Shown piece after piece: positions 318 through 56,630 of a stretch of DNA of 60,626 nucleotides. The notes under the pieces were generated by a model. The model worked only from the letters and a program-made list of their open reading frames with translations. It did no database searches and was not told the DNA's origin. Numbering within the stretch: position 1 is the first letter of the stretch; each line of letters opens with the position of its first letter. The stretch lies in sequence record NC_070971.1. The stretch is one strand, 5' to 3'. The position numbers and the translations under genes are program-made. The stretch comes from Pseudomonas virus PBPA162.

Positions 318-1232
318 ATGACCGTTTATGTAGCGCACGACGTCAAGGCGGCGATTGAAGCCGCAATTGAAGAGGACCAGGGCGCCACCTATCGCATGTG
401 GTTAGGTAGGGTTATTCCCCACATGGGGGACGCGTACAACGCAGAGAACCATCCGTTCCGCTCCCATATGGGGGCCAGTATGATTGGCAAAGAGTGCGGG
501 CGTGCTATCTGGTATAGTTGGAACTGGGTTACCCGTCCTAAGTTCAGCGGTCGTATGCTGCGCCTGTTCAACCGGGGTCACCTGGAGGAAGCGCGCTTCA
601 TTGCGCAGCTACTGACCATCGGGGTCAAGGTGTGGCAGCAGGACGCCAACGGTAAACAGTACCGAATCAGTGACGCCGGGGGTCACTTTGGCGGCAGTGG
701 GGACGGCATCGCCGCGTGCCTGCCTGGCATTAACGCCGACCAACAAGTTTTGCTGGAGTTCAAGACCCACAGCGAAAAAAGCTTCAAGGACTTGGTAGCC
801 AACGGCGTTCGTGAATCCAAGCCAGAACACTTCTTTCAGATGCAAACGTACATGCACAAGATGGGCCTTTGCTTGGCATTGTACGGGGCTGTCAACAAGA
901 ACAATGACGAAACCTACTGGGAGTGGGTTGTCCTGGAGCCGGAAACCGGTGAACAGCTTATCGACCGTGCTGTCAAGCTGGTTGGCTTCGACGGCGTACC
1001 CCCGCGCATGAGTGAAAGCCCAGGGGCGTGGAAGTGTAAAATGTGCGATCACCGCCCGGTATGCCACCTTGGGGCGGCACCGGACGTCAACTGCCGCACC
1101 TGCGCATACAGCCGCCCGGGAACCGATGGCACAGGGTTATGGTACTGCCACCAGGGGATGACGCCTGAGCCGCTCAAGGACGAAATCAAATACAACGGTT
1201 GCAACCACTACACCAAAAGGGCTTCACTGTAA
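318..1232 (+). CDS. PD-(D/E)xK exonuclease with C-terminal Cys cluster (Cas4/RecB-like)
   Basis: RBS AAGGAG lies 6 nt before the ATG at 318. An E-x-K-type motif (LLEFKTHSEK) is present, and a terminal Cys cluster (CKMCDHRPVC...CRTC...C) is typical of Fe-S Cas4-like nucleases. Confidence 0.5.
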   Translation: MTVYVAHDVKAAIEAAIEEDQGATYRMWLGRVIPHMGDAYNAENHPFRSHMGASMIGKECGRAIWYSWNWVTRPKFSGRMLRLFNRGHLEEARFIAQLLTIGVKVWQQDANGKQYRISDAGGHFGGSGDGIAACLPGINADQQVLLEFKTHSEKSFKDLVANGVRESKPEHFFQMQTYMHKMGLCLALYGAVNKNNDETYWEWVVLEPETGEQLIDRAVKLVGFDGVPPRMSESPGAWKCKMCDHRPVCHLGAAPDVNCRTCAYSRPGTDGTGLWYCHQGMTPEPLKDEIKYNGCNHYTKRASL

Positions 1233-3013
1233 TGACTGCCGTATCACTTGGACAAGCAATTCGCATGCGCTCTTATCAACAGGAGTGCATTGAAACACTT
1301 TGGGATTACTTCCGCAAGAATGGCGGTAACCCTGTGTGCGCCCTTCCAACTGGTACGGGCAAGTCTGTGGTTATTGCGGGCTTTATCAAGTCCGTGCTCG
1401 ACCAGTTCCCCAACCAGCGCATTATGGTGCTGACGCACGTCAAGGAATTGGTTGAGCAGAACCATGCTAAACTTATATCAATTTGGCCAACCGCTCCCGC
1501 TGGCGTGTACAGCGCTGGTTTGAAGCGCCGCGACACCCTTAACAACATCATCTTTGGGGGAGTTGCGTCTGTTGCCAAGAAAGGGCATCTGTTCGGGCAT
1601 GTGGACCTCATCATCATTGATGAATGCCATCTTGTTAGCCCGTCCGATATGACCATGTACCGCAAGCTTATCGACCTACTTACCCAGGTAAACCCCTACC
1701 TGAAGGTTATCGGCTTTACTGCCACCCCCTGGCGTCTTGGACACGGTAGGATCACAGAAGGGGAGGGGTCGGTATTTACGGACGTTTGCTTTGACATAAC
1801 CACAGTAGCGGCCTTCAACCGGCTCATTGCCGAAGGCTACCTCTGCCCTCTGGTACCGCGCCCCACAAATGTCAAGCTCAACCTCGATGGCGTTAACATG
1901 CGTGGGGGTGAGTTTATTCCTAAGGAATTGCAAGCCGCCGTAGACATTGAAGTTGTGACGCGGGCAGCCCTCAACGAGTGCATGCAGTACCACGGCGTGC
2001 GCAAGAAGTGGCTCATATTTGCGTCCGGTGTAAACCATGCCATAAACATCAAGGACATCCTACACGAGTTTGGACTGGAAGGGGCTGTTGTACACAGCAA
2101 GATGACGGAGGAGGAACGTGACTTACACATCACCAACTTCAAGGCGGGTAAGTACACGTTCCTTGTGAACAACAACATCTTGACTACAGGGTTCGATGAC
2201 CCTGAAATTGATATGATTGTCATCCTGCGCCCAACCGCGTCCAGCGTTCTATGGGTTCAGATGCTTGGCCGTGGTACCCGCCCACATCCCAGCAAAACCA
2301 ACTGCCTGGTACTGGACTTTGCTCGTAACGGCAAGCGCCTTGGCCCAATCAACGACCCGCTTATCCCGCGCAAGCCTGGTAAGGGTGGGGCTGGCGGTGC
2401 ACCGGTGAAGGAATGCCCGGTATGCGGAAACGACGTGCACGCCTCGCTGCGGTTCTGTGATTCGTTCCTGCCTCCAGAGTTTGTTGTCAAATGCACGCAC
2501 GAGTTTGAGTTCAAAGTCAAGCTTGTAGGGGAAGCGTCAGAAGACGAGATTGTACGCGGGGACTTGCCGGTAGTAGAAGACTTCAAAGTGGACAACGTAA
2601 CCTATATGCTGCACAAGAAGGCGGATAAACCTGACAGTGTGAAGGTTACATACTTCTGCACAGATGCCAACACTGGCAAGTCCCGTATGTTCCAAGAGTT
2701 TGTGTGCCTGGAGCACCAAGGGCGGGCTGCTGGTGCGGCCAAGCGGTGGGTAGCGGCACGAAGCGACGTAGCTGTTGGTACCACCCAGGGGTTGCTAAAC
2801 CTGGCGGATACCCTTCGTGTGGCTAGGTACATTAAAGTCTGGACAAACCAAACATACCCAACTATTCTTAACCATTGTTTCGAAGGAACATGTTTCGGGA
2901 CGGTTGAGCCGGACGACTCGCCCGCACCTGTTGCCCAAGTTGTAACAGGGCATGCAAACATCCGTCTAGCCATCCCTACCCCCACGCCAGCGGACACCGA
3001 AGGATACTTCTAA
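1232..3013 (+). CDS. SF2 DEAD/DEAH-box DNA helicase with C-terminal Zn-ribbon region
   Basis: TAATG start overlaps the upstream stop. Walker A ALPTGTGKS, DECH box (IIIDECH), SAT-like FTATPW and motif VI QMLGRGTR are present. A CPVCGN...RFC zinc ribbon lies in the C-terminal region. Confidence 0.7.
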   Translation: MTAVSLGQAIRMRSYQQECIETLWDYFRKNGGNPVCALPTGTGKSVVIAGFIKSVLDQFPNQRIMVLTHVKELVEQNHAKLISIWPTAPAGVYSAGLKRRDTLNNIIFGGVASVAKKGHLFGHVDLIIIDECHLVSPSDMTMYRKLIDLLTQVNPYLKVIGFTATPWRLGHGRITEGEGSVFTDVCFDITTVAAFNRLIAEGYLCPLVPRPTNVKLNLDGVNMRGGEFIPKELQAAVDIEVVTRAALNECMQYHGVRKKWLIFASGVNHAINIKDILHEFGLEGAVVHSKMTEEERDLHITNFKAGKYTFLVNNNILTTGFDDPEIDMIVILRPTASSVLWVQMLGRGTRPHPSKTNCLVLDFARNGKRLGPINDPLIPRKPGKGGAGGAPVKECPVCGNDVHASLRFCDSFLPPEFVVKCTHEFEFKVKLVGEASEDEIVRGDLPVVEDFKVDNVTYMLHKKADKPDSVKVTYFCTDANTGKSRMFQEFVCLEHQGRAAGAAKRWVAARSDVAVGTTQGLLNLADTLRVARYIKVWTNQTYPTILNHCFEGTCFGTVEPDDSPAPVAQVVTGHANIRLAIPTPTPADTEGYF

Positions 3014-3672
3014 TGTACATTGTAATTGACCGGGAAGACTGCGTATTCCTGCCAATCAAGCACCACAGCCTTCAGGCTGTGTGCAATCTTACCTGGCTGG
3101 AAGCCAGCCATGCACACCACACGCACATAATGGACTTGTATGACCATAATAGCCTGCGCGGGTTCACGGATATGGAGTTGTTCCTCCTGTACAAGAACAC
3201 TACCGGTCTAGAGCGCCCTCCTCGCATGGGGGATGCTCTTCGTAACATCTTGCTACACATGGCCCAGGCTATCCCCGAAACCGAAATCAACATCGGTAAG
3301 CTCATTGTACAGTGTGACGGGGTTACGGAAGAGCAGGTGCTTGAAAGTAGCTGGCGGTATGACCACACAGGCTACCGGGCCCAAGTGCAGGAGTCATTGT
3401 TTAAGCTGGAGCCTGTGCGTATGGCACCGCTGGCCGACGAAGTTGCCGCCGCTAAGGCCCGCCCCGTGCGCCAGGCTGCACCAAAGCCCGTACCCGCACC
3501 TACCCCCGCCCCAGCGCCGCAAGCCGCGCCAACGGCGGCGCCTGGGCCAATACCGGCACCCTGGGGCCGTACCCCGGCCATGCACACCCAGGGCCAGGTA
3601 CAAGCACCGGTGAAAAACGTCCAACCCACTCCCCAAGTGACATCACAGTTTAAGAAGCCTTGGGAAAAATAA
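3013..3672 (+). CDS. Hypothetical protein with Pro/Ala-rich C-terminus
   Basis: TAATG overlap with the helicase stop and a long ORF. No recognisable domain. Confidence 0.45.
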   Translation: MYIVIDREDCVFLPIKHHSLQAVCNLTWLEASHAHHTHIMDLYDHNSLRGFTDMELFLLYKNTTGLERPPRMGDALRNILLHMAQAIPETEINIGKLIVQCDGVTEEQVLESSWRYDHTGYRAQVQESLFKLEPVRMAPLADEVAAAKARPVRQAAPKPVPAPTPAPAPQAAPTAAPGPIPAPWGRTPAMHTQGQVQAPVKNVQPTPQVTSQFKKPWEK

Positions 3673-3685
3673 TGCGAAAAGGGGG

Positions 3686-3714
3686 TTGCACTCCCCTAAC
3701 ACCAGCGTTATAGT
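3686..3714 (+). promoter_or_regulatory. Sigma70-like promoter TTGCAC-N17-TATAGT, preceded by AAAAGGGGG
   Basis: Hexamers are at 3686-3691 and 3709-3714. The RBS-equipped gene at 3775 lies 60 nt downstream. Confidence 0.45.
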
Positions 3715-3774
3715 GCACCCCACATCGCCACTTTAACGCGACTATTTCAACCAACCCATAAATGAGGTAATACC

Positions 3775-4353
3775 ATGAGCGACAAGACCCCGGAAATGCT
3801 GGAAGCCGAACGCATCGAAGCCGAGCGCAAAGCTGCCGAAAAGAAAGCTGCCAAGGAAGAGAAGGCCCGCGTCAAGGCCGAGGAAAAGAAAGCCGCCGCC
3901 GCAGCGCGTGAAGCCGCCCGCCAGCCGGAACAGAACGGCATCCGCCGTCCGAAGCCGGAAACCGTTTGCGGTCGCCTGTGGGCCATCATGGACGGCGTCA
4001 GCGCTGAGCTGGGCCAGCCGGCGCCCATCAGCCGCGTACACGCCATCGCCACCGCCGAAGCCATCAACGACGCCACCATCCGCACCCAGTACGCCCGCTG
4101 GCGTAAATTCCACGGCGTCGCCGGTCGCGTAGAAGACCCGGCCAAAGCCGAGCAAGAAGCGCAGAAGGCCGCCGCCAAGGCAGCCGAGAAGGCGGAGAAG
4201 GAAGCAGCCAAGAAGGCCGAGGCCGAAGCCAAGCGTCTGCAGAAGGAAGAAGCCAAAGCCGCCAAGGCCGCTGAAAAAGAAGCCGCCAAGAAAGCCGAAG
4301 CCGAGCGCAAAGCTGCCGAAGCCGCCGCTGCCGCTGCCGCCAAGGGCGAGTAA
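3775..4353 (+). CDS. Lys/Ala/Glu-rich (histone-H1/AlgP-like repeat) protein. Central domain is shared with the 47001..47675 protein.
   Basis: RBS GAGGT. KAAEK-type repeats at both ends. The central segment NGIRRPKPE...ATIRTQYARWRKFHG is homologous to the C-terminus of the 47001 protein. Confidence 0.6.
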   Translation: MSDKTPEMLEAERIEAERKAAEKKAAKEEKARVKAEEKKAAAAAREAARQPEQNGIRRPKPETVCGRLWAIMDGVSAELGQPAPISRVHAIATAEAINDATIRTQYARWRKFHGVAGRVEDPAKAEQEAQKAAAKAAEKAEKEAAKKAEAEAKRLQKEEAKAAKAAEKEAAKKAEAERKAAEAAAAAAAKGE

Positions 4354-4369
4354 CCAGGCCTGCGTCATG

Positions 4370-4399
4370 AAAGCCCCGCCAAGTGCGGGGCTTTTTATC
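4370..4399 (+). terminator. Rho-independent terminator
   Basis: AAGCCCCGC-caagt-GCGGGGCTT followed by TTTTAT. Confidence 0.75.
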
Positions 4400-4416
4400 A
4401 CTTGAGGATTACATCC

Positions 4417-5196
4417 ATGCTTCTAAACAACCAGATTCCGGTCAAAACCCTACCCAACGACGACATAGGCGTTGTTGAAGTACACAGTATCTTTGCCACC
4501 ATTCAAGGTGAAGGACCGTTTGCCGGAAGGCCCGCAGTGTTTGTGCGTCTAAGTGGGTGCAATCTGCAATGCCCTAAGTGTGACACCGAGTACACTGGAG
4601 GAAACCCCCTAACTCCCAGGGCAATAGTGGAGTTAGTGCGCTTTGAGAACAAAATGGCGGACTACGACATCCACAACCCGACCGACCATGTTGACGTGCC
4701 GGACAAGGTACGGCCAAAGCTTTTGCCAGCCAATGCCCAAAACCGCCTTGTGGTTATCACTGGCGGCGAACCTATGCGGCAACCTATCGCCCCATTGGTC
4801 GAAGCACTGCTTGACGCGGGCATGCAGGTTCAGATCGAAACCAACGGCACCTTGTTCCGTGACCTGCCCTACAGCGACCCCAACCTGACCATCGTGTGCA
4901 GCCCGAAGACGGGGGCGGTTAACCACAAGCTGAAACCTCACGTCCGCCACTTGAAATACGTCGCCGCGTTTGATAACATGGCGGAGGATGGACTGCCGGT
5001 TAGCGCGCTGGACCATCCCAACGGCGGATTGCTGGCACGCCCATGGCCAAGCTTCAAGGGCGTCATTTACCTTCAGCCTGTGGACGAGAAAAATGAAGAC
5101 TTGAACAAAGAAAACATGGACGCAGTAGTTAAGTCCTGCCAACGGCACGGATACACCCTGTGCCTGCAAATGCACAAAATCATTGAGGTAGAATAA
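4417..5196 (+). CDS. queE: 7-carboxy-7-deazaguanine synthase QueE (radical SAM)
   Basis: RBS GAGGA 8 nt upstream of the ATG (alternative TTG at 4402). CxxxCxxC-type radical-SAM cluster motif (SGCNLQCPKCDT) and conserved IQGEGPFAGRP. Confidence 0.8.
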   Translation: MLLNNQIPVKTLPNDDIGVVEVHSIFATIQGEGPFAGRPAVFVRLSGCNLQCPKCDTEYTGGNPLTPRAIVELVRFENKMADYDIHNPTDHVDVPDKVRPKLLPANAQNRLVVITGGEPMRQPIAPLVEALLDAGMQVQIETNGTLFRDLPYSDPNLTIVCSPKTGAVNHKLKPHVRHLKYVAAFDNMAEDGLPVSALDHPNGGLLARPWPSFKGVIYLQPVDEKNEDLNKENMDAVVKSCQRHGYTLCLQMHKIIEVE

Positions 5197-5417
5197 TGCA
5201 AGCCCCTACAGCGGCGGAAGTAACGCAAAAAGACATCTCACTCCGAAACGTCCTAGTTGAATCGGGTCACTGGAAGTGCTGTCTTAACTGTTGCGAATGG
5301 GGTGCACCGGACAACAACCAAACCCTTCAACCACTCTGCCGAAAATACAACATGGTACCACCACCCAAGGTCATTGTTCTTGGGTGCGTTGAACACATGC
5401 CAGATATACCATTCTAG
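5196..5417 (+). CDS. Small Cys-rich hypothetical protein (CCxxCC motif) embedded in the que cluster
   Basis: TAATG overlap with the queE stop. WKCCLNCCEW plus additional Cys and His. No known family recognised. Confidence 0.4.
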   Translation: MQAPTAAEVTQKDISLRNVLVESGHWKCCLNCCEWGAPDNNQTLQPLCRKYNMVPPPKVIVLGCVEHMPDIPF

Positions 5418-5428
5418 GAGAAGCAAAC

Positions 5429-6487
5429 ATGAAAAAAGCATTGGTAGTTCTTTCCGGCGGCCAGGACAGCACAACTTGCCTGTTTGATGCAGTCCGCAAA
5501 TTTGGCAAGAAAGCAGTGCACTGCATTGCTTTTGATTACGGGCAGCGTCACGCCATCGAACTGCAAAGCGCCAGAACTGTGGCGGTGATAGCGGGAGTTG
5601 AGCTGGAAGAAATTGACGTGCAGGGTATCCTGCACAGTACCAGCCCGCTCACCTCAGACACGCCACCTGACCAATACGAAAGCTTCCATCAGATGGAAGA
5701 AGTAGTTGGTGACAAGGTTGAAAAGACGTTTGTACCGATGCGCAACAGCCTGTTCCTGACCATTGCGGCAAACCGTGCCGTAGAGCTGGGTTGCACCACT
5801 GTGGTTACCGGGGTGTGCGGCCAGGACAACGCCAATTACCCAGACTGTACCGAGGAATTCATCAAAAAGATCGAGTCCTCCATCAACCAATCCCTCGGCC
5901 TGATCTATCGTAACGGGGCGGTTACGACCACGGATGAACGGTACATCCACATCAGTACCCCGCTCATGCACATGAGCAAAGCCCAATCTGTGGCTTTCGC
6001 CATGGGTATCCCTGGTTGCATGAAAGCATTGGCCTACAGCCATACCAGCTACGACGGCGAGTATCCCCCTGTCAAACATAACCACAGCAACTTGCTGAGG
6101 GCTCAAGGCTTCATTGAAGCCTTACTCCCGGATCCGTTGGTGCTTCGTGGGTGGTTGGACGGACTGATGCAATTGCCGGGCACCGTCAACTATATGGACC
6201 CGTGGCATTACGTGTTCAGCTACGGCCTGTGCTCGGTTAAAGACCTGGAGCCCCACGATTGGGCGTACCAGATGACCGAGAAGTACGAGAACTTCAATGT
6301 CGGCGACGTCGTTTGGCCATACAATATGTATGACTTTGGCATGGCCAAGAGTAAGACAGAGTTCAGCATGGTGGCCCACATTAACATTTGTCGGTCGCCC
6401 GCCGCTGAGCACTGCTTCTACACCATTCCTGCGTCCAATGTCAAGCGCATTAGCATCACTGATGCAATTGGCCTGATGGCAATTTAA
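5429..6487 (+). CDS. queC: QueC-like 7-cyano-7-deazaguanine synthase homolog. Divergent metal site and ~120-aa C-terminal extension.
   Basis: RBS AGGAG. PP-loop SGGQDS. The conserved QueC core runs to about residue 230. The expected C-terminal CxnCxxCxxC zinc motif is replaced by SHTSYDG...KHNHSN. An extra C-terminal domain of unknown function follows. Confidence 0.7.
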   Translation: MKKALVVLSGGQDSTTCLFDAVRKFGKKAVHCIAFDYGQRHAIELQSARTVAVIAGVELEEIDVQGILHSTSPLTSDTPPDQYESFHQMEEVVGDKVEKTFVPMRNSLFLTIAANRAVELGCTTVVTGVCGQDNANYPDCTEEFIKKIESSINQSLGLIYRNGAVTTTDERYIHISTPLMHMSKAQSVAFAMGIPGCMKALAYSHTSYDGEYPPVKHNHSNLLRAQGFIEALLPDPLVLRGWLDGLMQLPGTVNYMDPWHYVFSYGLCSVKDLEPHDWAYQMTEKYENFNVGDVVWPYNMYDFGMAKSKTEFSMVAHINICRSPAAEHCFYTIPASNVKRISITDAIGLMAI

Positions 6488-6490
6488 CGC

Positions 6491-6519
6491 TTGTGACGAC
6501 TGGGGTTAGTTGGTACAAT
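6491..6519 (+). promoter_or_regulatory. Sigma70-like promoter TTGTGA-N17-TACAAT embedded in inverted repeat CTGGGGTTA-N10-TAACCCCAG
   Basis: Hexamers are at 6491-6496 and 6514-6519. The 9-bp perfect inverted repeat at 6500-6508 / 6519-6527 brackets the -10 element. Confidence 0.45.
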
Positions 6520-6544
6520 AACCCCAGTTAATGAGGAGACTGGT

Positions 6545-6742
6545 ATGAGCGAAATCAAGATAGAAACCAAATTCGTTGACGGCCCGTTGAATGGTCAATA
6601 CGGATATGTCAACATTCAAAGGGAACAATCAAGCCTGCGACTTCGCTTTGGACAGAACATCGGTCGGTACGTGCGGCACAAAAGGGATCTGTGCATGTAC
6701 TGGCATCAAGAACCCACCAACATTTCCCATAAACCGGAGTAA
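6545..6742 (+). CDS. Small hypothetical protein within the que cluster
   Basis: Strong RBS GAGGAG 7 nt upstream. 65 aa, no known motif. Confidence 0.45.
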   Translation: MSEIKIETKFVDGPLNGQYGYVNIQREQSSLRLRFGQNIGRYVRHKRDLCMYWHQEPTNISHKPE

Positions 6743-6746
6743 CCAC

Positions 6747-7205
6747 ATGAGCAAGAAATACCGCTCTACCAAAACCTACGGGCACGAACAGGGCCTGTCC
6801 TGCTGCTTCCGCCAATGGCGCGCTACGCACAGCCATTGCTCCCTGTTGCACGGCTACGCCATTTCCGTGGCCCTGGAGTTCGAAGCCGACGAGCTGGATC
6901 AACGCAACTGGGTTGTCGATTTCGGCGCGCTGGGTGAGGTCAAGGAATTCCTGCAATACAGCTTCGACCACACCCTGATGGTCGCCCAGGACGACCCCGA
7001 GCTGGACACGCTGACCGGCCTTAATGGGCTGGGCCTGGCACGCTGCATTGTGCTTCCGCGGGTTGGCTGCGAGGCCTTCGCTGAGTACATTGCGGATTTT
7101 GTCCAGGGCTGGCTACAACGCGAAGGCCTGGCCCCCCGTGTCGACCTGGCAAAGGTTGAAGTTCGTGAACATGGCGCTAACAGCGCCATCTACTATCCGC
7201 AGTAA
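6747..7205 (+). CDS. queD: 6-carboxy-5,6,7,8-tetrahydropterin synthase QueD
   Basis: RBS GGAG. C-x3-H-G-Y motif (CSLLHGY) and the size are typical of QueD/PTPS. The in-frame upstream extension to 6591 was rejected because it overlaps the preceding gene. Confidence 0.75.
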   Translation: MSKKYRSTKTYGHEQGLSCCFRQWRATHSHCSLLHGYAISVALEFEADELDQRNWVVDFGALGEVKEFLQYSFDHTLMVAQDDPELDTLTGLNGLGLARCIVLPRVGCEAFAEYIADFVQGWLQREGLAPRVDLAKVEVREHGANSAIYYPQ

Positions 7206-7214
7206 GGACAAGAG

Positions 7215-7838
7215 ATGAGCGACAAGTATTCACAACTGGTTGAAGATTCCGTCCGCGGCATTCTGAAGGAAGTCGACCCAACGTCCCTGATCCAGGTCCC
7301 CGATGACCGCTACGTCACCGGTCGCCGCAAGGAACTGCGCCCCGGCCTGACCGACACCCCCAAGCGGGTTGCAAAGGCCTGGAAGCACTGGACCGGCGGC
7401 TACGATATCAACGTGGCGGAACTGCTGTCTGTCAAGTTCAAGGACGGCGGCGAAAGCTATGACCAAATGGTGCTGGTCAAGGACATCCCGCTGTACAGCA
7501 AGTGCGAGCACCACCTGGCGGACATCTTCGGCACCGCAACGGTCGCCTACATCCCCAACCCGGAACACGGGGTAGTTGGTCTGTCCAAGATCAGCCGCGT
7601 AGTGGATGCCTATGCCCGTCGCCTGCAAACCCAGGAACGTATCACCGTACAGGTGGCCGATGCCCTCGATGAGCACCTGGCCGCCCTGGGTGTTGGTGTG
7701 GTTATCAAGGCTCGGCACATGTGCATGGAAAGTCGCGGCCTGTGCCAGCAGGGCCATCACACGGTAACCGTGCAACTGCGCGGCCTGCTGCGCAATGACC
7801 CCGGCCTGCGACAAGAGTTCCTTTCTGTTGCACGCTAA
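7215..7838 (+). CDS. folE: GTP cyclohydrolase I FolE
   Basis: Zinc-ligand motifs CEHH (SKCEHHL) and HMCMESRG are conserved in FolE. Confidence 0.8.
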   Translation: MSDKYSQLVEDSVRGILKEVDPTSLIQVPDDRYVTGRRKELRPGLTDTPKRVAKAWKHWTGGYDINVAELLSVKFKDGGESYDQMVLVKDIPLYSKCEHHLADIFGTATVAYIPNPEHGVVGLSKISRVVDAYARRLQTQERITVQVADALDEHLAALGVGVVIKARHMCMESRGLCQQGHHTVTVQLRGLLRNDPGLRQEFLSVAR

Positions 7839-7856
7839 CTGGGGTTAGGGTACAAT
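7828..7856 (+). promoter_or_regulatory. Sigma70-like promoter TTGCAC-N17-TACAAT followed by hairpin plus T-rich motif CGGTACGCCCCTTTCTTTT
   Basis: Hexamers are at 7828-7833 and 7851-7856. The spacer shares ACTGGGGTTAG with the promoter at 6491. Confidence 0.45.
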
Positions 7857-7911
7857 AGGGGCCTACTTCGGTACGCCCCTTTCTTTTGACTGATAGTAAA
7901 AGCGGTGAGGT

Positions 7912-8850
7912 ATGGCAAACAACACTGGCGTAAACGTCTTTCTTGCGGCGGTCTACACCAACAACTACATGCGCGGGCAGAAGCTGTACGAGAACCTGAA
8001 TGACCACGAAAAGGCTATCACACGCAACCTGCCCAACATCCTTGAATCTTGGCACTACGTGGGCGCGCAGCGCTACGTGGACCAAATGCGCGCAGACGGG
8101 GCCAAAGTATTCCTGGACTCCGGCGCCTTCTCTGCATGGACACTGGGAGCCACAATGAGCCTCCCGGACTACTGCGAGTACATCAAAACCAACATGGACA
8201 TCCTGCGGGTTGAGGACGGCGACGTCATGGCGTCTGTACTGGACGGTATCGGCGACCCGCTGCAAACCTGGCGCAACCAGTACGAGATGGAACTGCGCGG
8301 TGTACGCCCGCTGCCATGCTTCCACTTCGGGGAACCGGAGGAATATCTGGAGCACTACGTCAAGAACTATAACTACATCACCATCGGTGGCATGGTTGGC
8401 AAGACGCCAGAAACCCTTACCCGGTGGTTGGACCGCATGTGGGACCGCCACATGGTGGACGGCTCTGGCAGGGCTAAGATCAAGGTGCACGGCTTCGGGC
8501 TTACATCCATCCCGCTCATGGAGCGCTACCCCTGGTACAGTTGTGACTCCTCGTCCTGGATCCAGGCAACGGCGTTCGGTACGGTAGTGAGCCCGCAGTT
8601 CGGCCCGTTGCGCGTGTCGGACAAATCACCCAGCCGGCATGACGCCGGACAGCATGTGTGCAACCTCAGCCAGCAAGAGCAAGAAGCCGTGTTCCGGCAT
8701 TTTGAGCAGGCAGGTTTCACGTACGAAAGGCTGTCTACGGTGTACGAAAGCCGGGCAGCTTTTAACCTGTGGGCGTATACTGTTATCCAGGGTCTAGTTA
8801 ACGCTAAAAACGACGGCGTGTTCCGCCAACGCATACAGGAGTTATTCTAA
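7912..8850 (+). CDS. dpdA: DpdA-like 7-deazaguanine DNA transglycosylase (TGT superfamily)
   Basis: RBS GAGGT. LDSGAFS matches the TGT catalytic DSGGF motif. The TGT zinc subdomain is absent, as in phage DpdA. Its position next to preQ0 biosynthesis genes supports the call. Confidence 0.65.
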   Translation: MANNTGVNVFLAAVYTNNYMRGQKLYENLNDHEKAITRNLPNILESWHYVGAQRYVDQMRADGAKVFLDSGAFSAWTLGATMSLPDYCEYIKTNMDILRVEDGDVMASVLDGIGDPLQTWRNQYEMELRGVRPLPCFHFGEPEEYLEHYVKNYNYITIGGMVGKTPETLTRWLDRMWDRHMVDGSGRAKIKVHGFGLTSIPLMERYPWYSCDSSSWIQATAFGTVVSPQFGPLRVSDKSPSRHDAGQHVCNLSQQEQEAVFRHFEQAGFTYERLSTVYESRAAFNLWAYTVIQGLVNAKNDGVFRQRIQELF

Positions 8851-8925
8851 TGTTCATCGCGTACCCCTACAACAATCACGTGCTGGGAATCTTCACTACT
8901 AAAGAGGCAGACGAGGGTCAGCCCA

Positions 8926-9909
8926 ATGCTTAAAGAATTGAAGTTTGTACAGGGTGCTGTGGGCAAGAAGGAGTTCATCCCTGCCGTTACCCACTTCTGT
9001 TTCGAGAACGGCACTGTGCGCTCGTACAACGGCACAATGGCCCTGTGCACCCCGATCGACTGCGCCCTGGAGTGCAAGCCCCTGGCCGTACCCATGGTGG
9101 CGGCTATCAGCAAGTGCACCGAAACCATTGCGCTGAGCATTACCCCCACCGGCAAGCTCAGCATCAAATCCGGCAATTTTAAGGCCCTCGTCCCGTGCAA
9201 CAATGATGACGTGCAGGTGCACGTACTGCCAGAGGGCGACTTCATTGAGTTCGACGGCCAGGCCCTGCTAGATGGCCTCAAGGCTGTGCAGCCGTTCATT
9301 GGCACCGACGCATCCCGGCAGTGGGGTATGGGCGTGCTGATCAAGGGCAAGAGCCTGTTTGCCACTAACAACGTCTGCCTGATTGAATACTGGGTTGGCG
9401 CCGACTTCCCGCGTGTGGTTAACCTTCCCCGCGCAGCGGTGGCTGAGCTACTCCGTATTGGCGAATGTCCAATTGGTGCCCAGTGCACCGATACAAGCAT
9501 GACTTTCCACTACAGCAGCGGCAAGTGGCTGCGCACGTCCCTGTACAGCACGCAATGGCCGGACTTGGAAGCCGTACTTAACCGACCAGGCAACTTGCGC
9601 CCAATTGACCCGATGTTTTGGAGCGGGCTGGACAGCCTGAAAATGTTCACCGACCGTAACGGCTCTGTGCTGATAAGCGACGGTATGATGCGCACGCACG
9701 AAGATATTGGCGAGGGTGCCTGCTTCGAGCTTGACTGGTGCCAGGCGCCAGAGACGGCGGAAGAGTTTAAGCACCCCAGCCTGTGGAACGTAAGCATGCT
9801 GAGCCTGTTGCAAGGGGTAGCCACACAGTTGGACCTGAGCGCGTACCCGTCACCGTGCTTGTTCCAAGGTCAGCGTATCCGTGGCGCCATTATTGGTATG
9901 CGCCTGTGA
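8926..9909 (+). CDS. DNA polymerase sliding clamp (DnaN/beta-clamp-like)
   Basis: The length fits a three-domain beta clamp. The C-terminal ...IIGMRL resembles the clamp terminal MPMRL motif, and the internal VNLPRAAVAELLRI resembles clamp domain III. Confidence 0.55.
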   Translation: MLKELKFVQGAVGKKEFIPAVTHFCFENGTVRSYNGTMALCTPIDCALECKPLAVPMVAAISKCTETIALSITPTGKLSIKSGNFKALVPCNNDDVQVHVLPEGDFIEFDGQALLDGLKAVQPFIGTDASRQWGMGVLIKGKSLFATNNVCLIEYWVGADFPRVVNLPRAAVAELLRIGECPIGAQCTDTSMTFHYSSGKWLRTSLYSTQWPDLEAVLNRPGNLRPIDPMFWSGLDSLKMFTDRNGSVLISDGMMRTHEDIGEGACFELDWCQAPETAEEFKHPSLWNVSMLSLLQGVATQLDLSAYPSPCLFQGQRIRGAIIGMRL

Positions 9910-10274
9910 TGAAGCAACGGGTGTTGGTATGCGGTGGGCGGCAGTTTGCCGACTGGCAGCACCTGTGCCGCGTAATGGCCCTGGTAGCGCCCTGGTGCGC
10001 CGCCAGGCCGTTGCTAATACATGGGGGCGCCCCTGGTGCCGACACGCTAGCAGGTCGCTGGGCGGCGCTTAACGGGTGGCCCTGTGCAGTGGTAGCGGCC
10101 AACTGGGACTTTTACGGCAAGGCTGCTGGTAGTCTTCGCAACCAATGGATGCTAAGCATGCTAGAGCCTGATCTGGTAGTAGCGTTACCGGGAGGAGTAG
10201 GAACAGCACATATGGTACGCATAGCTCGCAAAGCGGGCGTAGACGTCTACGTCGCCTCTACAGGGCAGGTTTAA
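9909..10274 (+). CDS. SLOG-family (DUF2493/YpsA-like) Rossmann nucleotide-binding protein
   Basis: TGATG start coupling. GG..GAD and PGGVGT glycine-rich motifs (LVCGGRQFADW, IHGGAPGADTLA). Confidence 0.5.
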   Translation: MKQRVLVCGGRQFADWQHLCRVMALVAPWCAARPLLIHGGAPGADTLAGRWAALNGWPCAVVAANWDFYGKAAGSLRNQWMLSMLEPDLVVALPGGVGTAHMVRIARKAGVDVYVASTGQV

Positions 10275-10292: not shown

Positions 10293-10499
10293 ATGTACAC
10301 TAAAGAAACATTCAAGCTAAGCCGTCTAATCGCAGAGGCCGTGCTGCAAGACGAACTTACCGAAGGTTGTGACGTTGCCGCAGGGTTGTTTGGGCCAAAC
10401 CTGACAGCGCTGGTGAGCAACATTGCCCACCACCTTGCGGACTACCTGCCAACCCACTATCTAAACACCTTGCTGGGGGACTGTAAAGATGCGGAGTGA
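10293..10499 (+). CDS. Hypothetical protein
   Basis: RBS GGAG, 68 aa. Confidence 0.4.
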   Translation: MYTKETFKLSRLIAEAVLQDELTEGCDVAAGLFGPNLTALVSNIAHHLADYLPTHYLNTLLGDCKDAE

Positions 10500-12669
10500 T
10501 GCACTGGGTCTTTTCTGGCGTGACGAACCCCCAGTCAAGAAGACCGCAGCGCCCAAGGTAAAGCGTAAGCCGCCTACGCCCACATGGCTGAACGATGACT
10601 ACCTGCCAGGCCTGGAAGAAGCCCTCAACGCCCAGCTACCCGTCATGAGCGACGGCATGCTTGCCCGCTGGGGCGAGCTTCCAACCGGGCGCGGTACCAT
10701 GGTGTTTGACGTTGAGATTTACAAGAACTACTTCCTGGCTGCCTTCCACCATCTGGAAAGCGGCCAGCTTGTGTATGTTGAATCGGATGCCTTCGGTACC
10801 ATCGACGTACGCAAGCTTGACTACATCATGACCCACTTCCTGACGGTGGGCTTCAACAGCATCCCCTTTGACTGCCCAATAACCACACTGGCGCTGGCCG
10901 GGGTTAGTGTGCCGCGCATCAAAGAAGCGGTTGATATGCTCATTCAGGAAGAGATGCCCTGGCGGGATATGCTCAAGTTGTACAAGGTCAAGCAGCGCCG
11001 GGACTTCAACCACATTGACCTACGCGAAGTAGCCCCGCTGAGCGGCAGCCTGAAGATTTACTCAGGGCGGTTGCACGCCAAGCGCATGCAAGACTTGCCC
11101 TTCCCGCCGGACCGCGTCCTTACCGACGACCAGATAGCAATCACCCGCTATTACTGCTGCAACGACTTGGCCAATACCAAGCTGATGTATGAAAGCCTGG
11201 CTGGTCAGTTGGATCTACGGGTGCAGATGAGCGCTGAATACAACATTGACCTACGCAGTAAGTCGGACGCGCAAATTGCAGAATACGTCATTGGCGCAGA
11301 AGTTGCCAAGCTTACCGGCGACCGCTGCCACCGGCCCGTAGTACCGCCAGGCACGGCGTACCGCTACCGTACGCCCAACTACATGCAGCACTTCCAAACG
11401 CAGACGATGCGGGACGTGCTCAAGGTAGTGCAGGACGCCAAGTTCATTGTAGCAGACCATGGTTCTATTGAAACGCCGCCAACCATTGGAGACTTGAAGG
11501 TTCCCATTGGAAAGGGCGTGTACACCATGGGCATTGGCGGCCTGCACAGTACGGAGAAGAAGACGGCACACATTTCGTCCACCGAGTACAAGCTGTTTGA
11601 TATCGACGTAACGTCCTACTACCCGTCCATTATCCTCAACCAGGGCTTGTTCCCCCACCATATGGGACAAGCCTTCCTTACGGTCTACCGCAACCTTGTA
11701 AACCGTCGTATCAGCGCCAAGCGTGCTAAGCAAGCTCTGATTGCCGCATCGCTCAAGATCGTTATTAACGGCTCGTATGGCAAGCTTGGCTCTAAGTGGT
11801 CTATCCTATATGCACCGGATCTTCTGGTGCAGGTAACAATGACCGGTCAGCTTAGCCTGCTGCTGCTCATTGAATGGTTCGAGATGCAAGGCATTCAGGT
11901 TGTGAGTGCCAACACGGACGGCATTGTGGTTAAGCCGCACGTAAGTCAAGTAGACCTCATGCACCAGACCATTAAGTACTGGGAGCACGTGACCAACTTT
12001 GAGATGGAACACACCGAGTACTCCGGACTATACAGCAAAGACGTAAACAACTACATTGCTGTCAAGACCGACGGTAGCGTTAAGGGCAAGGGCCTGTACG
12101 CCAACCCCTGGGCGGACGGCGAGGGGGACCGTGCACCATGGATGCACAAGAACCCAGCTACGCAGATATGCGTGAAGGCGGTGACGGAGCTGCTCAGCCG
12201 TGGTACACCTGTTGCCAAAACAATCATGAACTGCACAGATCTAACCCAGTTTGTGAGCGTGCGCTCTGTGCGTGGCGGCGCAGTGCAGGTGCTAGAAAAG
12301 TCAGTGCCGCCTGCGCATAGGTCCATGGAAGAGCTTGTGCACCTTGCCGGGTTCCAACCCTACCACGGTGGTATGTACGTCTTACCGGGAACCGAGGGCC
12401 GAGCATGGACACTGGCCGAAGCGTACGACACCGCCTTGGGCATGCTAACCACACCGGAAAAGTGTGTGTACCTGGGAAAGTCCGTGCGCTGGTACTACGC
12501 CACCGGCAACAATGGTGAGCTAGTGTACGCCGAGTCTGGTAACAAGGTTGCCAAGTCGGACGGGGCCAAGCCGCTCATGGACCTACCCGACAGCATGCCG
12601 CAGGACATCAACTATGAGTGGTACATAACCGAAGCCGAAAAGATCCTAACGCACATAGGATACGTGTAA
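10489..12669 (+). CDS. Family B DNA polymerase with N-terminal 3'-5' exonuclease domain
   Basis: Exo I FDVE. PolB motif A DIDVTSYYPSII and motif B KIVINGSYGKLG. The motif C region is SANTDGIVV (variant). Confidence 0.8.
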   Translation: MRSDALGLFWRDEPPVKKTAAPKVKRKPPTPTWLNDDYLPGLEEALNAQLPVMSDGMLARWGELPTGRGTMVFDVEIYKNYFLAAFHHLESGQLVYVESDAFGTIDVRKLDYIMTHFLTVGFNSIPFDCPITTLALAGVSVPRIKEAVDMLIQEEMPWRDMLKLYKVKQRRDFNHIDLREVAPLSGSLKIYSGRLHAKRMQDLPFPPDRVLTDDQIAITRYYCCNDLANTKLMYESLAGQLDLRVQMSAEYNIDLRSKSDAQIAEYVIGAEVAKLTGDRCHRPVVPPGTAYRYRTPNYMQHFQTQTMRDVLKVVQDAKFIVADHGSIETPPTIGDLKVPIGKGVYTMGIGGLHSTEKKTAHISSTEYKLFDIDVTSYYPSIILNQGLFPHHMGQAFLTVYRNLVNRRISAKRAKQALIAASLKIVINGSYGKLGSKWSILYAPDLLVQVTMTGQLSLLLLIEWFEMQGIQVVSANTDGIVVKPHVSQVDLMHQTIKYWEHVTNFEMEHTEYSGLYSKDVNNYIAVKTDGSVKGKGLYANPWADGEGDRAPWMHKNPATQICVKAVTELLSRGTPVAKTIMNCTDLTQFVSVRSVRGGAVQVLEKSVPPAHRSMEELVHLAGFQPYHGGMYVLPGTEGRAWTLAEAYDTALGMLTTPEKCVYLGKSVRWYYATGNNGELVYAESGNKVAKSDGAKPLMDLPDSMPQDINYEWYITEAEKILTHIGYV

Positions 12670-12760: not shown

Positions 12761-13324
12761 ATGAACATACGCAAACGAGAAGAGTACAAGCTTATCACTG
12801 AATACTACGGTGACCGTACGGCCCGCCGCAGCGGCGTACCCCTCATGAACCACATTCGGGAGGGGTTGGAGTTGTTGAATATGTTTGGGGCCAGCGATAC
12901 GGCCAAACAAGCATTCTGCTTGCACCCGCTGCTCCAGGGCGATATGGAGCTCGGCACCAACGTGCAGAACATAGCCCTCAATTCCCAGGTTAACCCCAAT
13001 GCGCTTACGCAGGCCCTGCTGTACAGGGAAGCGGCCAACCGCTATCTGTGCTCACCCATGACCGATCCGTGGGGACCGGCTACGGCCACCAGGGCAGTAC
13101 GCCCAATGACCCTTTCTCCGCACGTATACTTTATGCTGTGTGCGGACAAGTTGCAAAACCAGAAGGACTTCGACATTTACCACAAGGACACGCACCCGCG
13201 TAGTAAATATCTTGCCAAATACTTCAAGAACTGGCTGACCATACTGGGCGTGGTACCAGAGGAGCAACTGGCGTATCATCAACACCTGATCATGAGCGAA
13301 CACAGGATTAACGGCGATGACTGA
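12761..13324 (+). CDS. Hypothetical protein
   Basis: RBS AGGAG 7 nt upstream. 187 aa, no confident domain. Confidence 0.5.
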   Translation: MNIRKREEYKLITEYYGDRTARRSGVPLMNHIREGLELLNMFGASDTAKQAFCLHPLLQGDMELGTNVQNIALNSQVNPNALTQALLYREAANRYLCSPMTDPWGPATATRAVRPMTLSPHVYFMLCADKLQNQKDFDIYHKDTHPRSKYLAKYFKNWLTILGVVPEEQLAYHQHLIMSEHRINGDD

Positions 13325-14663
13325 CAAACCTGAGCAACTTAGCTTCAACGGGTGTACCACCAAAGCCCAAGCTGCCAACCTATCATTGAAAAGCGCAAGC
13401 GATGGACGAATTCTGGCGGCTAAACCCTCCCCGGTGCAGTCCGAGCAGGCAGAGGCGGAGCAGCCGGAGGTGGTGGCTCGCGTCGTGCATTCGAATCCTG
13501 TCGTCCTCGCCCAGTGCGGTCCGCTCAATGCAAACGATGAACTGATGACTGTCGCGCAGCATGCAGCCAGCGTCGCCAGTTGGGCAGAAATGTTCAATCG
13601 AGTGGAGCAAGAGCGCGACGCCGCCCTGGCCAGGGCGGCGGAGCTAGAAGCGGCCATTAGTTCGGCATTATCCCAGCATGGCGTCAAATTCATGGACCCG
13701 CCTGATGGCGGAGATGTTCCGTTGATAGAGCAGCTTTACCGAATGTCTCAGGCATTGTCAGAACTGGAGAAGCCAGACCCTGATTACACACAGCACCCGC
13801 AGATCGTAGGGTACGCTCGAAAAAAGGAACTTGCGCCACTGCTCGATCCGTGCCAACCTGACGGTAGCTACATCTACATTGGGCTGGACCACCCGGCATG
13901 CTGGGCGGAAGAAGCCCCTTATGAGTTCTTGATCCCCTTGTACGCCGCTCCTGTTACGCCGGCTCTGCCTGAAGACGTGCGTGTCCTGTTGTCCAGGGCA
14001 CAGGCTGAAATAGAGTACTTAGCGGAGTGCCTGGAGAATGTATGCGAGGACGACGAAGAGCTTGACGTGGCTCAAGACATCAAGGAGAGCATTGCTGTAG
14101 CTGACAAAATAGCGCACCTGATTGCAAGCGCTCCCGTGTCCAAAACCGCCGCGCCAGTACAGGACGAGTCCAGTTTGCCGGATGTGTGCGACGGCAAAGA
14201 GCAGGACGCTTTCGAGGAGTGGGCGACTAAGCAAGGCATGAACATGCAATGCCACCCAATGCACTGGTTGTTCTTGGACACCAAAACTATGAGCGCACGA
14301 CAAGGTTGGAAGGCCGCACTCAAGTACGTCCGTGCACACATTGCCGCCGTGTCCGCCAAGTCTCAGCAACGAGTTCCGGATGACGTTGAAACTTTCCTCA
14401 ACGAAGTTCGCGCCGAGCTGCTGCGGGCAAGGTCCAAGTTTCCCGGCGACCGCATTATGACTATCGCTCTTGCCGAAGAGTTCGGCGAGCTGTGCAAAGC
14501 GGTGCTGGACGAACCGGCTGCGAATGTACGCAAGGAAGCGGTACAAACCGCCGTCATGGCTGCACGCGTGGTTCTGGATGGCGACGGCTCTGTTACGGCG
14601 TGGCGCGCCGAACGCGGGCTAGACCCTCTCACCGCTCCCGGCAAGGAAGGCCCCAATGAGTAA
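13317..14663 (+). CDS. Hypothetical protein with C-terminal MazG-like NTP pyrophosphohydrolase domain
   Basis: ATGA overlap coupling. The C-terminal IALAEEFGELCKAVLDE...VMAARVVLD resembles the MazG EExGE helix pair. Confidence 0.5.
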   Translation: MTDKPEQLSFNGCTTKAQAANLSLKSASDGRILAAKPSPVQSEQAEAEQPEVVARVVHSNPVVLAQCGPLNANDELMTVAQHAASVASWAEMFNRVEQERDAALARAAELEAAISSALSQHGVKFMDPPDGGDVPLIEQLYRMSQALSELEKPDPDYTQHPQIVGYARKKELAPLLDPCQPDGSYIYIGLDHPACWAEEAPYEFLIPLYAAPVTPALPEDVRVLLSRAQAEIEYLAECLENVCEDDEELDVAQDIKESIAVADKIAHLIASAPVSKTAAPVQDESSLPDVCDGKEQDAFEEWATKQGMNMQCHPMHWLFLDTKTMSARQGWKAALKYVRAHIAAVSAKSQQRVPDDVETFLNEVRAELLRARSKFPGDRIMTIALAEEFGELCKAVLDEPAANVRKEAVQTAVMAARVVLDGDGSVTAWRAERGLDPLTAPGKEGPNE

Positions 14664-45705: not shown

Positions 45706-45738
45706 CTTCTAAAACCATAAGCCCAGGAGGGTAAGACC

Positions 45739-45903
45739 ATGAACGCAGCACTGGCAAGGCTTCAGAACAAGCGCGCTTGGCTGCTCCGCGATATGCTTTC
45801 GAGCAGATGGCACGGCTTCAGCTTTGCCGGCCACCCGTGGGCCAAGCAAGTTCGAGCACTGCATGACGAAGCCAAGTGTATCCGCGAACACCACAACCGC
45901 TAA
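45739..45903 (+). CDS. Small hypothetical protein (54 aa, below the ORF-track cutoff)
   Basis: Strong RBS CAGGAGGG 7 nt upstream. Translates to MNAALARLQNKRAWLLRDMLSSRWHGFSFAGHPWAKQVRALHDEAKCIREHHNR. Confidence 0.4.
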   Translation: MNAALARLQNKRAWLLRDMLSSRWHGFSFAGHPWAKQVRALHDEAKCIREHHNR

Positions 45904-45944
45904 CAACCCAGCCCGGTGCGCCAGGGCTTCACCGAGGGTAAAAC

Positions 45945-46361
45945 ATGAACGCTGATGAACTGTTCCGTGCATGCATTGGCCATGCCATAGCCAACGTTGA
46001 GTACAGGAATTATTGCCTGTACTTCCAAATGTCCAATGGTACTCATTTCCAGTTGCAAGCTGATGAGGGTGAGTATGATTACTATAGCTGCCAGTACCTG
46101 GAGGTAAAGCAGCCTGTCCACGCATTTGTAGGCGACACACTTACCGGCCTGGAGTTGCTACAAGGCCCGGAAACCCACACGCCCCAGGACTACCATTGTG
46201 TTACCTACGTCCGCATTGCCACTAGCGGCGGGGTTATCCAATGTGAGTTGCATACAATGCACAATGGGTATGGTTCGCCTGCTTGTCTTGAGGTATGTGT
46301 CAGCCAGGTACAAGGGAGACCCTGCGCCACCAATGCCTGCCTGGACCACAAATACCCGTAA
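45945..46361 (+). CDS. Cys-rich hypothetical protein
   Basis: RBS GAGGGT. 138 aa with multiple Cys/His. Confidence 0.5.
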   Translation: MNADELFRACIGHAIANVEYRNYCLYFQMSNGTHFQLQADEGEYDYYSCQYLEVKQPVHAFVGDTLTGLELLQGPETHTPQDYHCVTYVRIATSGGVIQCELHTMHNGYGSPACLEVCVSQVQGRPCATNACLDHKYP

Positions 46362-55889: not shown

Positions 55890-56630
55890 ATGAAAGACTA
55901 CATGCAGCAAGCCGATGTAACCATGAGCCCTGTGTACGCAGGTGGACAAGTGGACGACTACTTCCTTACCAGCCTGCTCACCAATTATGTCGGGCTTACC
56001 GACACGCTGGACAGCGTTAAGAAAGCGCTGTTTTACGGCAAGGGGGACTTTGTTGACCATGGCTCGCAAACGTGCGAGCACTGGCCCCAAACCCTGGTAG
56101 CCAACAGCCAGGGCGCCATTACCCGCGACCAGGCCGTTGAGCTGGTGCATGGCATTATCGGCGTCGCCACCGAGGCCGGGGAAATGGTTGCCGCGTTACT
56201 GGAAAGCTTCAACAATGGGAAACCCCTGGACCTTGTCAACATGGTTGAGGAAACCGGTGACGTAATGTGGTACCTGGCGGCCATCCTGAAGAACTGCAAC
56301 TCCACCTTCGAAAAGGCCCAGCAAATCAACATCCAGAAGCTGCGTCAACGCTTTGGCGACAAGTTCAGTTCCTACGATGCACTGAACCGTAACCTGGACG
56401 CCGAGCGCAAGATCCTGGAGGGTAACGACGGCAAGGTACCCGTGGAAGGCGAAGTAAAACACCTGGATGATGGCTGTATCATCAACCACAAGGGCGTCGA
56501 GCGCCTTGTATTCCACAAGGATGGTAAAACCTACGTGTCTTCGCGTGTGGTTAACACTTGCAAGCTCACCAATACCGTTAAGACGCTGAACAGCGTTTAC
56601 CGGGTTTCGCAACTGGACTGGATTAACTAA
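55890..56630 (+). CDS. MazG-like nucleotide pyrophosphohydrolase with C-terminal extension
   Basis: RBS GAGGG. GVATEAGEMVAALLE...EETGDVMWYLAAIL forms the EExGE/ExxD helix pair. Confidence 0.6.
   Translation: MKDYMQQADVTMSPVYAGGQVDDYFLTSLLTNYVGLTDTLDSVKKALFYGKGDFVDHGSQTCEHWPQTLVANSQGAITRDQAVELVHGIIGVATEAGEMVAALLESFNNGKPLDLVNMVEETGDVMWYLAAILKNCNSTFEKAQQINIQKLRQRFGDKFSSYDALNRNLDAERKILEGNDGKVPVEGEVKHLDDGCIINHKGVERLVFHKDGKTYVSSRVVNTCKLTNTVKTLNSVYRVSQLDWIN

Follow-up and report, generated by a model that had tools for sequence, protein, structure and literature searches.

A dPreQ0 DNA-modification cluster predicted in Pseudomonas virus PBPA162 carries a zinc-site-less QueC in a recombined block

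Which modified base does Pseudomonas virus PBPA162 place in its DNA, and do the unusual parts of its modification locus alter that base? The locus is a cluster of seven open reading frames (ORFs) for 7-deazaguanine synthesis and insertion, located at positions 4402-8850 of the 60,626-nt stretch of PBPA162 DNA analysed here (hereafter the window, to which all coordinates refer); all cluster genes are on the + strand. A first-pass annotation, made from the letters alone, had described a complete locus in which a pathway to 7-cyano-7-deazaguanine (preQ0) and a DpdA-like transglycosylase would replace guanines as an anti-restriction strategy, and had held that the derivative cannot be told from sequence. 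The latter statement was too cautious. With a probability of about 0.9, we take the cluster to be the DNA-modification module of an Iggyvirus (Queuovirinae) that yields dPreQ0, the deoxynucleoside form of preQ0. The product in PBPA162 is most likely dPreQ0 at 5'-GA-3' sites, as judged by homology, because its DpdA is identical to that of phage Iggy and the share of GA among its guanines matches the level found in Iggy.

The ORF map confirmed the seven ORFs in the order queE-73-aa ORF-queC-65-aa ORF-queD-folE-dpdA (aa, amino acids); the small ORFs are termed orfA and orfB below. Five of the seven were assigned to families with Pfam, NCBIfam and PHROG, and the four biosynthetic enzymes among them make up a complete preQ0 pathway. 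FolE (7215..7838, 207 aa) is a GTP cyclohydrolase I (PF01227, E=1.9e-59; NF006825, E=4e-61), and QueD (6747..7205, 152 aa) is similar to 6-carboxytetrahydropterin synthase (PF01242, E=4.1e-16; PHROG 2389, E=3.2e-43). QueE (4417..5196, 259 aa), a 7-carboxy-7-deazaguanine synthase of the radical S-adenosylmethionine (SAM) type, matched PHROG 2076 (E=3.9e-53), TIGR04322 (E=2.8e-27) and Pfam Radical_SAM (E=1.6e-5), and its CxxxCxxC motif was read directly off the sequence (C48/C52/C55). The preQ0 synthase QueC (5429..6487) matched PF06508 (E=3.1e-45) and TIGR00364 (E=6.4e-43), and its fold was confirmed by modelling as described below. Gene order and coordinates of the first-pass annotation stood, with the exception of two start codons. 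The queD gene starts at ATG 6747, and queE most likely starts at ATG 4417 and not at the alternative TTG 4402, because GAGGA is located 8 nt upstream of the ATG, the TTG is a TTA in phage Knedl, and the Iggy gene is annotated from the ATG. In an alignment of six phage QueDs, we also observed C-x3-H-G-Y in place of the C-x3-H-G-H of Escherichia coli QueD, and S-C-C-F-R where E. coli has a zinc-ligand His within A-A-H-R. Two of the three canonical zinc histidines of the E. coli enzyme would thus be replaced in all six phage proteins.

Following queuosine biochemistry and the family matches, FolE would convert GTP to dihydroneopterin triphosphate and QueD would make 6-carboxytetrahydropterin, which QueE would rearrange to 7-carboxy-7-deazaguanine. 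QueC would convert this compound, via the amide, to preQ0. DpdA, to judge from its homologues, would then exchange guanine for preQ0 in double-stranded phage DNA.

The evidence for the base comes from Iggy, in which this cluster (gp44-gp50 of NC_070970) was studied by Olsen et al. (2023, Nucleic Acids Research 51:8663; PMC10484667), who named PBPA162 as a carrier of the same genes. In Iggy DNA, dPreQ0 was the sole deazaguanine and made up 16.5-16.9% of G, with 16.9% of dG by liquid chromatography-tandem mass spectrometry; nanopore sequencing revealed a strict 5'-GA-3' motif with 97% of the GA sites modified (PMC10484667). The DNA resisted restriction enzymes, and also Cas9 when the protospacer-adjacent motif (PAM) was modified (PMC10484667). 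Iggy belongs to the same genus and has the same seven ORFs in the same order at the same genomic position, with both small ORFs and a QueC of the same extended type. The DpdA of the window (7912..8850, 312 aa) is identical to Iggy DpdA in 312 of 312 residues, followed by QueD (99.3%), QueE (98.5%), FolE (97.6%) and the orfB product (96.9%). The intergenic promoter-like and terminator elements are also the same, save for one substitution upstream of the -35 hexamer of the second promoter-like site. In the window, 5,838 of 34,186 G (17.1%) precede an A, in line with the Iggy level. If modification proceeds as in Iggy, essentially every 5'-GA-3' on both strands would carry the base and about 17% of G would be replaced. 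Such DNA would be expected to resist many restriction enzymes, and Cas9 with a modified PAM, by the example of Iggy, CAjan and 9g. The anti-restriction role proposed in the first-pass annotation therefore matches experiments on a phage with the identical DpdA (PMC10484667).

The four biosynthetic enzymes are also those of the queuosine pathway, and DpdA homologues are labelled 'queuine tRNA-ribosyltransferase' in many database records. It could thus be argued that the genes serve the queuosine metabolism of host tRNA, and so the tuning of translation, instead of phage DNA modification. This is hardly credible in view of the dPreQ0 in Iggy virion DNA (16.9% of dG) and of phage CAjan, in which deletion of dpdA abolishes DNA modification (Hutinet et al. 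2019, PMC6884629). Moreover, no QueF, QueA or QueG for the completion of queuosine was found with Pfam in the cluster and the early and replication ORFs. Conversely, expression of the dpdA of phage 9g in E. coli led to dPreQ0 in plasmid DNA (Hutinet et al. 2019, PMC6884629). In tblastn searches, the DpdA of the window was 72.2% identical to that of CAjan (E=6e-153) and 67.6% to that of 9g (E=5e-150), and it matched PHROG 887 (E=5.1e-86). It can be placed in the phage DpdA1 family with confidence.

The setting of the cluster is likewise that of DpdA1 clusters of the Queuovirinae type: the arrangement queE-queC-queD-folE-dpdA is found on the strand of the replication genes, beside the genes for the sliding clamp (8926..9909) and the DNA polymerase (10489..12669) (ORF map, Iggy annotation and PMC10484667). 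Escherichia phage CAjan (Seuratvirus, dPreQ0) and Enterobacteria phage 9g (dG+) have the same order by their replication genes. They differ from the cluster described here in other respects. The targets in CAjan are GA and GGC, which amounts to about 32% of G, as opposed to GA only in Iggy; CAjan also carries yhhQ. CAjan-type QueC, from phages of the Seurat/Skure group, is only 32-33% identical to QueC of the window, and for CAjan itself no QueC similarity above 30% was reported (Olsen et al. 2023, PMC10484667). Phage 9g has a Gat-QueC fusion and makes dG+, whereas QueC of the window contained no glutamine amidotransferase (GATase) domain detectable with Pfam and its match to PHROG 10428 was limited to the QueC part. 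The bacterial Dpd restriction-modification islands (DpdA-DpdK) likewise insert preQ0 into DNA by means of a DpdA-family transglycosylase. Of their genes only a dpdA-like one occurs here, without dpdB, dpdC or dpdD-K, and the phage module counters restriction and is not a defence system.

The absence of downstream modifiers asserted in the first-pass annotation could be upheld at the level of Pfam. We detected no Pfam domain of QueF, GATase or ArcS in the cluster, in the segments that diverge from Iggy or in any + strand ORF of 95 aa or more from the early and replication regions; this search operated at the level of Pfam, which has no models for DpdL, DpdM and DpdN, so that these proteins (including the DpdM and DpdN named in that annotation) were outside its reach. 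At the Pfam level, the cluster thus agrees with the dPreQ0 subtype, which has no further modifier.

QueC was correctly singled out as non-canonical in the first-pass annotation. It consists of a core (aa 1-255) and a C-terminal extension of about 95 aa. The core keeps the motifs SGGQDS (aa 9-14), YGQRHAIE (37-44), VPMRN (102-106) and YPDC (137-140), which correspond to SGGxDS, YxQxHxxE, VPxRN and YPDC, the hallmarks of QueC according to a 2026 preprint (PMC13082051). In an AlphaFold2 model built with a 72-sequence alignment, the predicted local distance difference test (pLDDT) score was above 84 for aa 1-260, and the best fold match in the PDB was Bacillus subtilis QueC (3BL5; template modelling score 0.81). 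Canonical QueC (PF06508 cluster 1; 3BL5 and the E. coli enzyme) thus shares the fold and the four motifs. The difference is that the four zinc cysteines of E. coli QueC, C(x)8CxxCxxC, align with S207, V215, N218 and N221 (generally S...V/T..N..N), and that the extension is added.

The loss of these cysteines is common to the 72 members of the subfamily and to the QueCs of Rhizobium phage RHph_Y17, Edwardsiella phage ZHS and Pseudomonas phage PSASB_03. Thousands of QueCs from metagenomic phage sequences, about 60% identical, carry the signature SHTSYDG..PP..NHSN.LRA, as do these three phages. The lack of the zinc site is, as read from these alignments, a trait of a large phage QueC subfamily and not a local defect. 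We found no mention of this subfamily in PMC10484667, PMC10516641 or PMC13082051, and as far as could be told Iggy is its only member with chemical data in the literature examined. In IMG/VR contigs L006..L009, with DpdAs 60-69% identical to that of the window, QueC was only 25-29% identical, and the L006 protein, the one of the four that was aligned, had a canonical CxxC-type zinc motif. In the same contigs, about 700-770 nt separate queE from the QueC-matching region, and this additional sequence could encode a fused amidotransferase domain of the dG+ type. Another arrangement was seen in the 195-kb Vibrio phage vB_VcorM_GR11A, which has two adjoining QueC-family genes (at 3477..5043 of locus L028, not of the window); both products contain CxxCxxC and one is 40% identical to the QueC core of the window.

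The extension (aa 256-352) is confined to iggyviruses and two metagenomic relatives. A word-index search with it gave no match, and no known family was found in Pfam or NCBIfam. An exhaustive HMMER search returned 8 weak matches, among which the distal domain was covered only by one extended QueC and a 78-aa stand-alone protein; the distal 60 residues matched PHROG 7900 and this same protein weakly. The gene of the 78-aa relative is located among anonymous small phage genes. In the AlphaFold2 model with 72 sequences, aa 269-352 had a pLDDT below 50.

Comparison with related phages revealed that queC has a history different from that of its surroundings. The orfA product and QueC are 100% identical to proteins recorded for PBPA162. 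At the DNA level, Pa-V, Pa-X and Pa-oumiga matched the cluster as a whole with 98% identity, Iggy with 92%, and HTN2, Knedl and PaP007/PaP002 with 88-92%. In a sliding identity plot, a block at 5030..6487 stood out, which comprises the last 55 codons of queE, orfA and queC. The identity of this block was 100% to Pa-V and only 50-85% to Iggy, HTN2, Knedl and PaP007. The reverse held from about 7730 on (98-100% identity to Iggy, about 90% to Pa-V). The right boundary of the block is exactly at the queC stop codon, beyond which six phages are identical again. Synonymous divergence (dS) was 0.96-1.9 inside the block and 0.01-0.17 outside. Relative to Iggy the block is a different allele (QueC 70.8% and orfA product 72.6% identical, dS 1-1.9), and the ratio of nonsynonymous to synonymous divergence (dN/dS) was lowest at the 3' end of queE (0.03), followed by the QueC core (0.075), orfA (0.10) and the extension (0.30). 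That queC and the small gene next to it belong to a small number of diverged genes had already been noted by Olsen et al. (PMC10484667). The dS and dN/dS values indicate that the block is an anciently diverged allele under purifying selection that was exchanged by recombination. Diversifying selection on queC was considered and rejected, since dS is saturated, dN/dS is below 1, and the pattern fits an old allele imported by recombination. The dN/dS values of orfA and of the extension also show that both are genuine constrained coding sequence.

The divergence of the queC alleles (dN is 0.14 between the cores and 0.53 between the extensions) raises the question of whether the PBPA162 enzyme, which is 71% identical to that of Iggy and has a strongly diverged extension, stops at the amide or lets go of another intermediate and gives rise to dADG or dCDG. 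QueC determines the inserted base; for a QueC homologue of other phages, QueC*, the role of an ADG synthase has been put forward, and one DpdA2 enzyme can insert CDG, although with low efficiency (PMC10516641). However, both alleles retain SGGxDS, YxQxHxxE, VPxRN, YPDC and the Tyr that is essential in the 'TxY' segment, and both have the same zinc-less signature. The core dN/dS of 0.075 points to purifying selection on the same function, and the DpdA is identical to the Iggy enzyme, an inserter of preQ0. We consider an arrest at the amide or the release of another intermediate very unlikely and retain dPreQ0 as the product. A more general proposal is that a large phage QueC subfamily makes preQ0 without a Cys4 zinc site and, in iggyviruses, travels as an exchangeable block together with its C-terminal domain. 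That domain, or the conserved orfB product, could compensate for the loss of the zinc domain or add a second activity, in which case the PBPA162-type allele might differ from that of Iggy. We offer this proposal tentatively and regard it as rather doubtful.

Are the two small ORFs needed for the pathway? The orfA gene (5196..5417) overlaps the queE stop codon with its start (TAATG) and encodes a Cys-rich protein of 73 aa with the pattern W-K/R-C-C-x-N-C ... C-x-K-Y ... G-C-x-x-H ... I-P-F (PHROG 23504, E=1.6e-14), in which W26, C28, C29, N31, C32, W35, C48, K50, Y51, C64, H67 and the C-terminal IPF are invariant. The orfB gene (6545..6742) encodes 65 aa with the pattern G-P ... G-x-Y ... W and had no match in Pfam, NCBIfam or PHROG. 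One may suppose that both are dedicated components, with the orfA product as a zinc-binding partner of QueC (or an aid to QueE) and the orfB product as an accessory subunit of QueC or QueD. The orfA product is rich in Cys and His, its gene is coupled to queE in translation and moved in one block with queC, and coding constraint was found on both ORFs. ORFs similar to orfB occupy the queC-queD gap in five lineages, all with zinc-less QueC: the iggyviruses and the four contigs L010, L012, L014 and L015. On the other hand, in each of four other phage contigs an orfA relative follows directly on the helicase gene, and one of these loci (L023) contained no que genes in the retrieved DNA. RHph_Y17, PSASB_03 and ZHS have the same QueC type and neither small ORF (in the first two, queE-queC-queD-folE are directly adjacent), L015 lacks orfA and L013 lacks orfB. 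A role of the two proteins as dedicated components is accordingly unlikely, and the specific idea of orfA as a zinc-domain partner of QueC was largely rejected on the genomic context in other phages.

Because the clusters of RHph_Y17 and PSASB_03 lack both small ORFs, and Iggy with both makes dPreQ0 as its only deazaguanine, orfA and orfB are probably dispensable for the pathway; orfB may have an accessory role. They would most likely be lineage-specific passengers or accessory proteins and not required steps. The suggestion in the first-pass annotation of something new from the small ORFs and the unusual QueC is weakened: Iggy has the same features and only dPreQ0, related clusters with the same QueC lack the small ORFs, and orfA relatives occur in replication modules.

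The two promoter-like elements noted in the first-pass annotation at 6491..6519 and 7828..7856 are at the right coordinates and share ACTGGGGTTAG. This 11-mer occurs exactly twice in the window, once at each site, and a genome-wide promoter family built on it was rejected for this reason. When a 2-nt indel is allowed for, 20 of 22 bases match between the two sites. A promoter consensus scan of the region yielded 4 sites where 3.6 were expected, which is not above chance; support for the sites thus comes from the repeat and its conservation and not from the hexamers. Site 1 (6491..6528, + strand) has the form TTGTGA-17-TACAAT (6491..6519), and its -10 element is inside the loop of a 10-bp inverted repeat, ACTGGGGTTA (6499-6508) and TAACCCCAGT (6519-6528). 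It is the same in six iggyviruses even though the divergence of queC reaches as far as the stop codon. At the equivalent place, TTGACG-17-TAGTAT is found in the distant relative L010, with a different 7-bp inverted repeat around the -10. Site 2 is combined with a terminator (7828..7887, + strand): TTGCAC-17-TACAAT (7828-7856) abuts a hairpin with a UUCG loop (7857-7880), followed by a U-run (7881-7887). This region is the same in six iggyviruses save for the substitution just upstream of the -35 hexamer mentioned above, and the layout of a -10 abutting a terminator also occurs after folE in L010 and L012. Judged by these comparisons, the two sites are genuine repeats whose structure-linked layout is found again in distant relatives.

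Upstream of the cluster, an intrinsic terminator (4370..4396, + strand) between a 192-aa gene and queE consists of a 10-bp GC-rich stem, a 5-nt loop and a U-run; its RNA fold had -19.5 kcal/mol (z score -3.6), and the same sequence is present in six iggyviruses. Speculatively, the cluster would form three transcription units, namely queE-orfA-queC, orfB-queD-folE from site 1 and dpdA from site 2. Transcription from site 2 would begin about 7 nt past the -10, within the 5' arm of the terminator hairpin behind folE; the RNA, which would lack this arm, would escape termination. Read-through from folE would then be terminated, while dpdA would be expressed from its own promoter.

Several points weigh against the reading of the cluster as a dPreQ0 module. 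The chemistry is known for Iggy and is carried over to PBPA162 by homology, in spite of identities to Iggy of only 70.8% for QueC and 72.6% for the orfA product, and this applies to the product of the PBPA162 QueC allele in particular. This QueC type lacks the zinc site treated as a hallmark of preQ0 synthases (PMC13082051). Furthermore, the host has its own queC, and we infer the activity of the phage QueC itself. The three-unit transcription scheme, a speculative one, is drawn from motifs in the DNA.

The remaining point concerns DpdA, for which the first-pass annotation had named profile similarity to DpdA and to tRNA-guanine transglycosylase (TGT) as the test. Similarity to DpdA was evident (72% to CAjan, 67.6% to 9g); similarity to TGT was not. 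No TGT match was obtained in Pfam (E up to 10, 10 family members), in NCBIfam or in the PDB (phmmer with the single sequence; hmmsearch with 10- and 17-sequence profiles), and hhalign against E. coli Tgt (approximate sequence) only aligned DSGAFS with DSGGFQ at a probability of 2-4%. A single-sequence AlphaFold model had a pLDDT of 36 and was unusable. The PADLOC models of bacterial DpdA matched close relatives of the window DpdA weakly (E=2e-4 to 7.5e-3) and did not match the window DpdA itself. In 17 diverse phage DpdAs, D69-S-G-A, D111, H138, H193 and D212-S are invariant, and the invariance of D69, D111 and D212 would be compatible with TGT chemistry. The case for its inclusion in the TGT superfamily comes from the literature and from the conserved D-S-G-A, G-G-M-V-G and D-S-S-S-W motifs.

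A helicase gene (1199..3013) is located upstream of the cluster, beside two small genes without assigned function. Immediately 3' of dpdA, a 70-aa hypothetical gene that is kept in full in Iggy, Pa-V, HTN2, Knedl and PaP007 has been cut by an in-frame deletion of 129 nt (43 codons) to a 27-aa remnant ORF, MFIAYPYNNHVLGIFTTKEADEGQPNA (8850..8933), which overlaps the dpdA stop and the clamp-gene start. Just 3' of the clamp gene, and before the polymerase gene, 9783..10274 encodes a YspA/SLOG-family protein (PF10686, E=1.1e-15), and 55890..56630 encodes a MazG-like pyrophosphohydrolase with a weak Pfam match, which is MazG-like in the Iggy annotation as well. Both families are nucleotide-related and could affect the pools of nucleotides or precursors.

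Relative to the Iggy record, the window is reverse-complemented and circularly permuted, with 91-98% identity outside three short segments. The Iggy ends map to 43018/43019, the window ends are adjacent in Iggy, and no terminal repeat was found at the window ends. At 13317..14663, a 448-aa ORF without a Pfam match replaces an Iggy gene annotated as 'peptide chain release factor 1'; over the first ~1,000 nt of this ORF, nothing in Iggy matched at the DNA level. Two short segments within 45732..46344 also lack DNA similarity to Iggy, and a 138-aa protein encoded there matched DUF7448 weakly (E=1.1e-5, just under the Pfam cut-off).

The cluster, the phage group, the base, the target motif and the protection were published between 2019 and 2023, with PBPA162 named; the observation that opened this analysis is right and not new. 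The zinc-less QueC subfamily, the block exchange, the context of the small ORFs and the layouts of the promoter-like sites seem to be absent from the literature examined. These are incremental additions, of which the zinc-less QueC, the exchange of orfA-queC and the -10 elements set in a hairpin or against a terminator could interest deazaguanine enzymologists and work on phage gene regulation. For PBPA162 itself, the predicted dPreQ0 at every GA site, about 17% of G, would bear on sequencing quality, restriction mapping, Cas9 engineering and the design of phage therapy.

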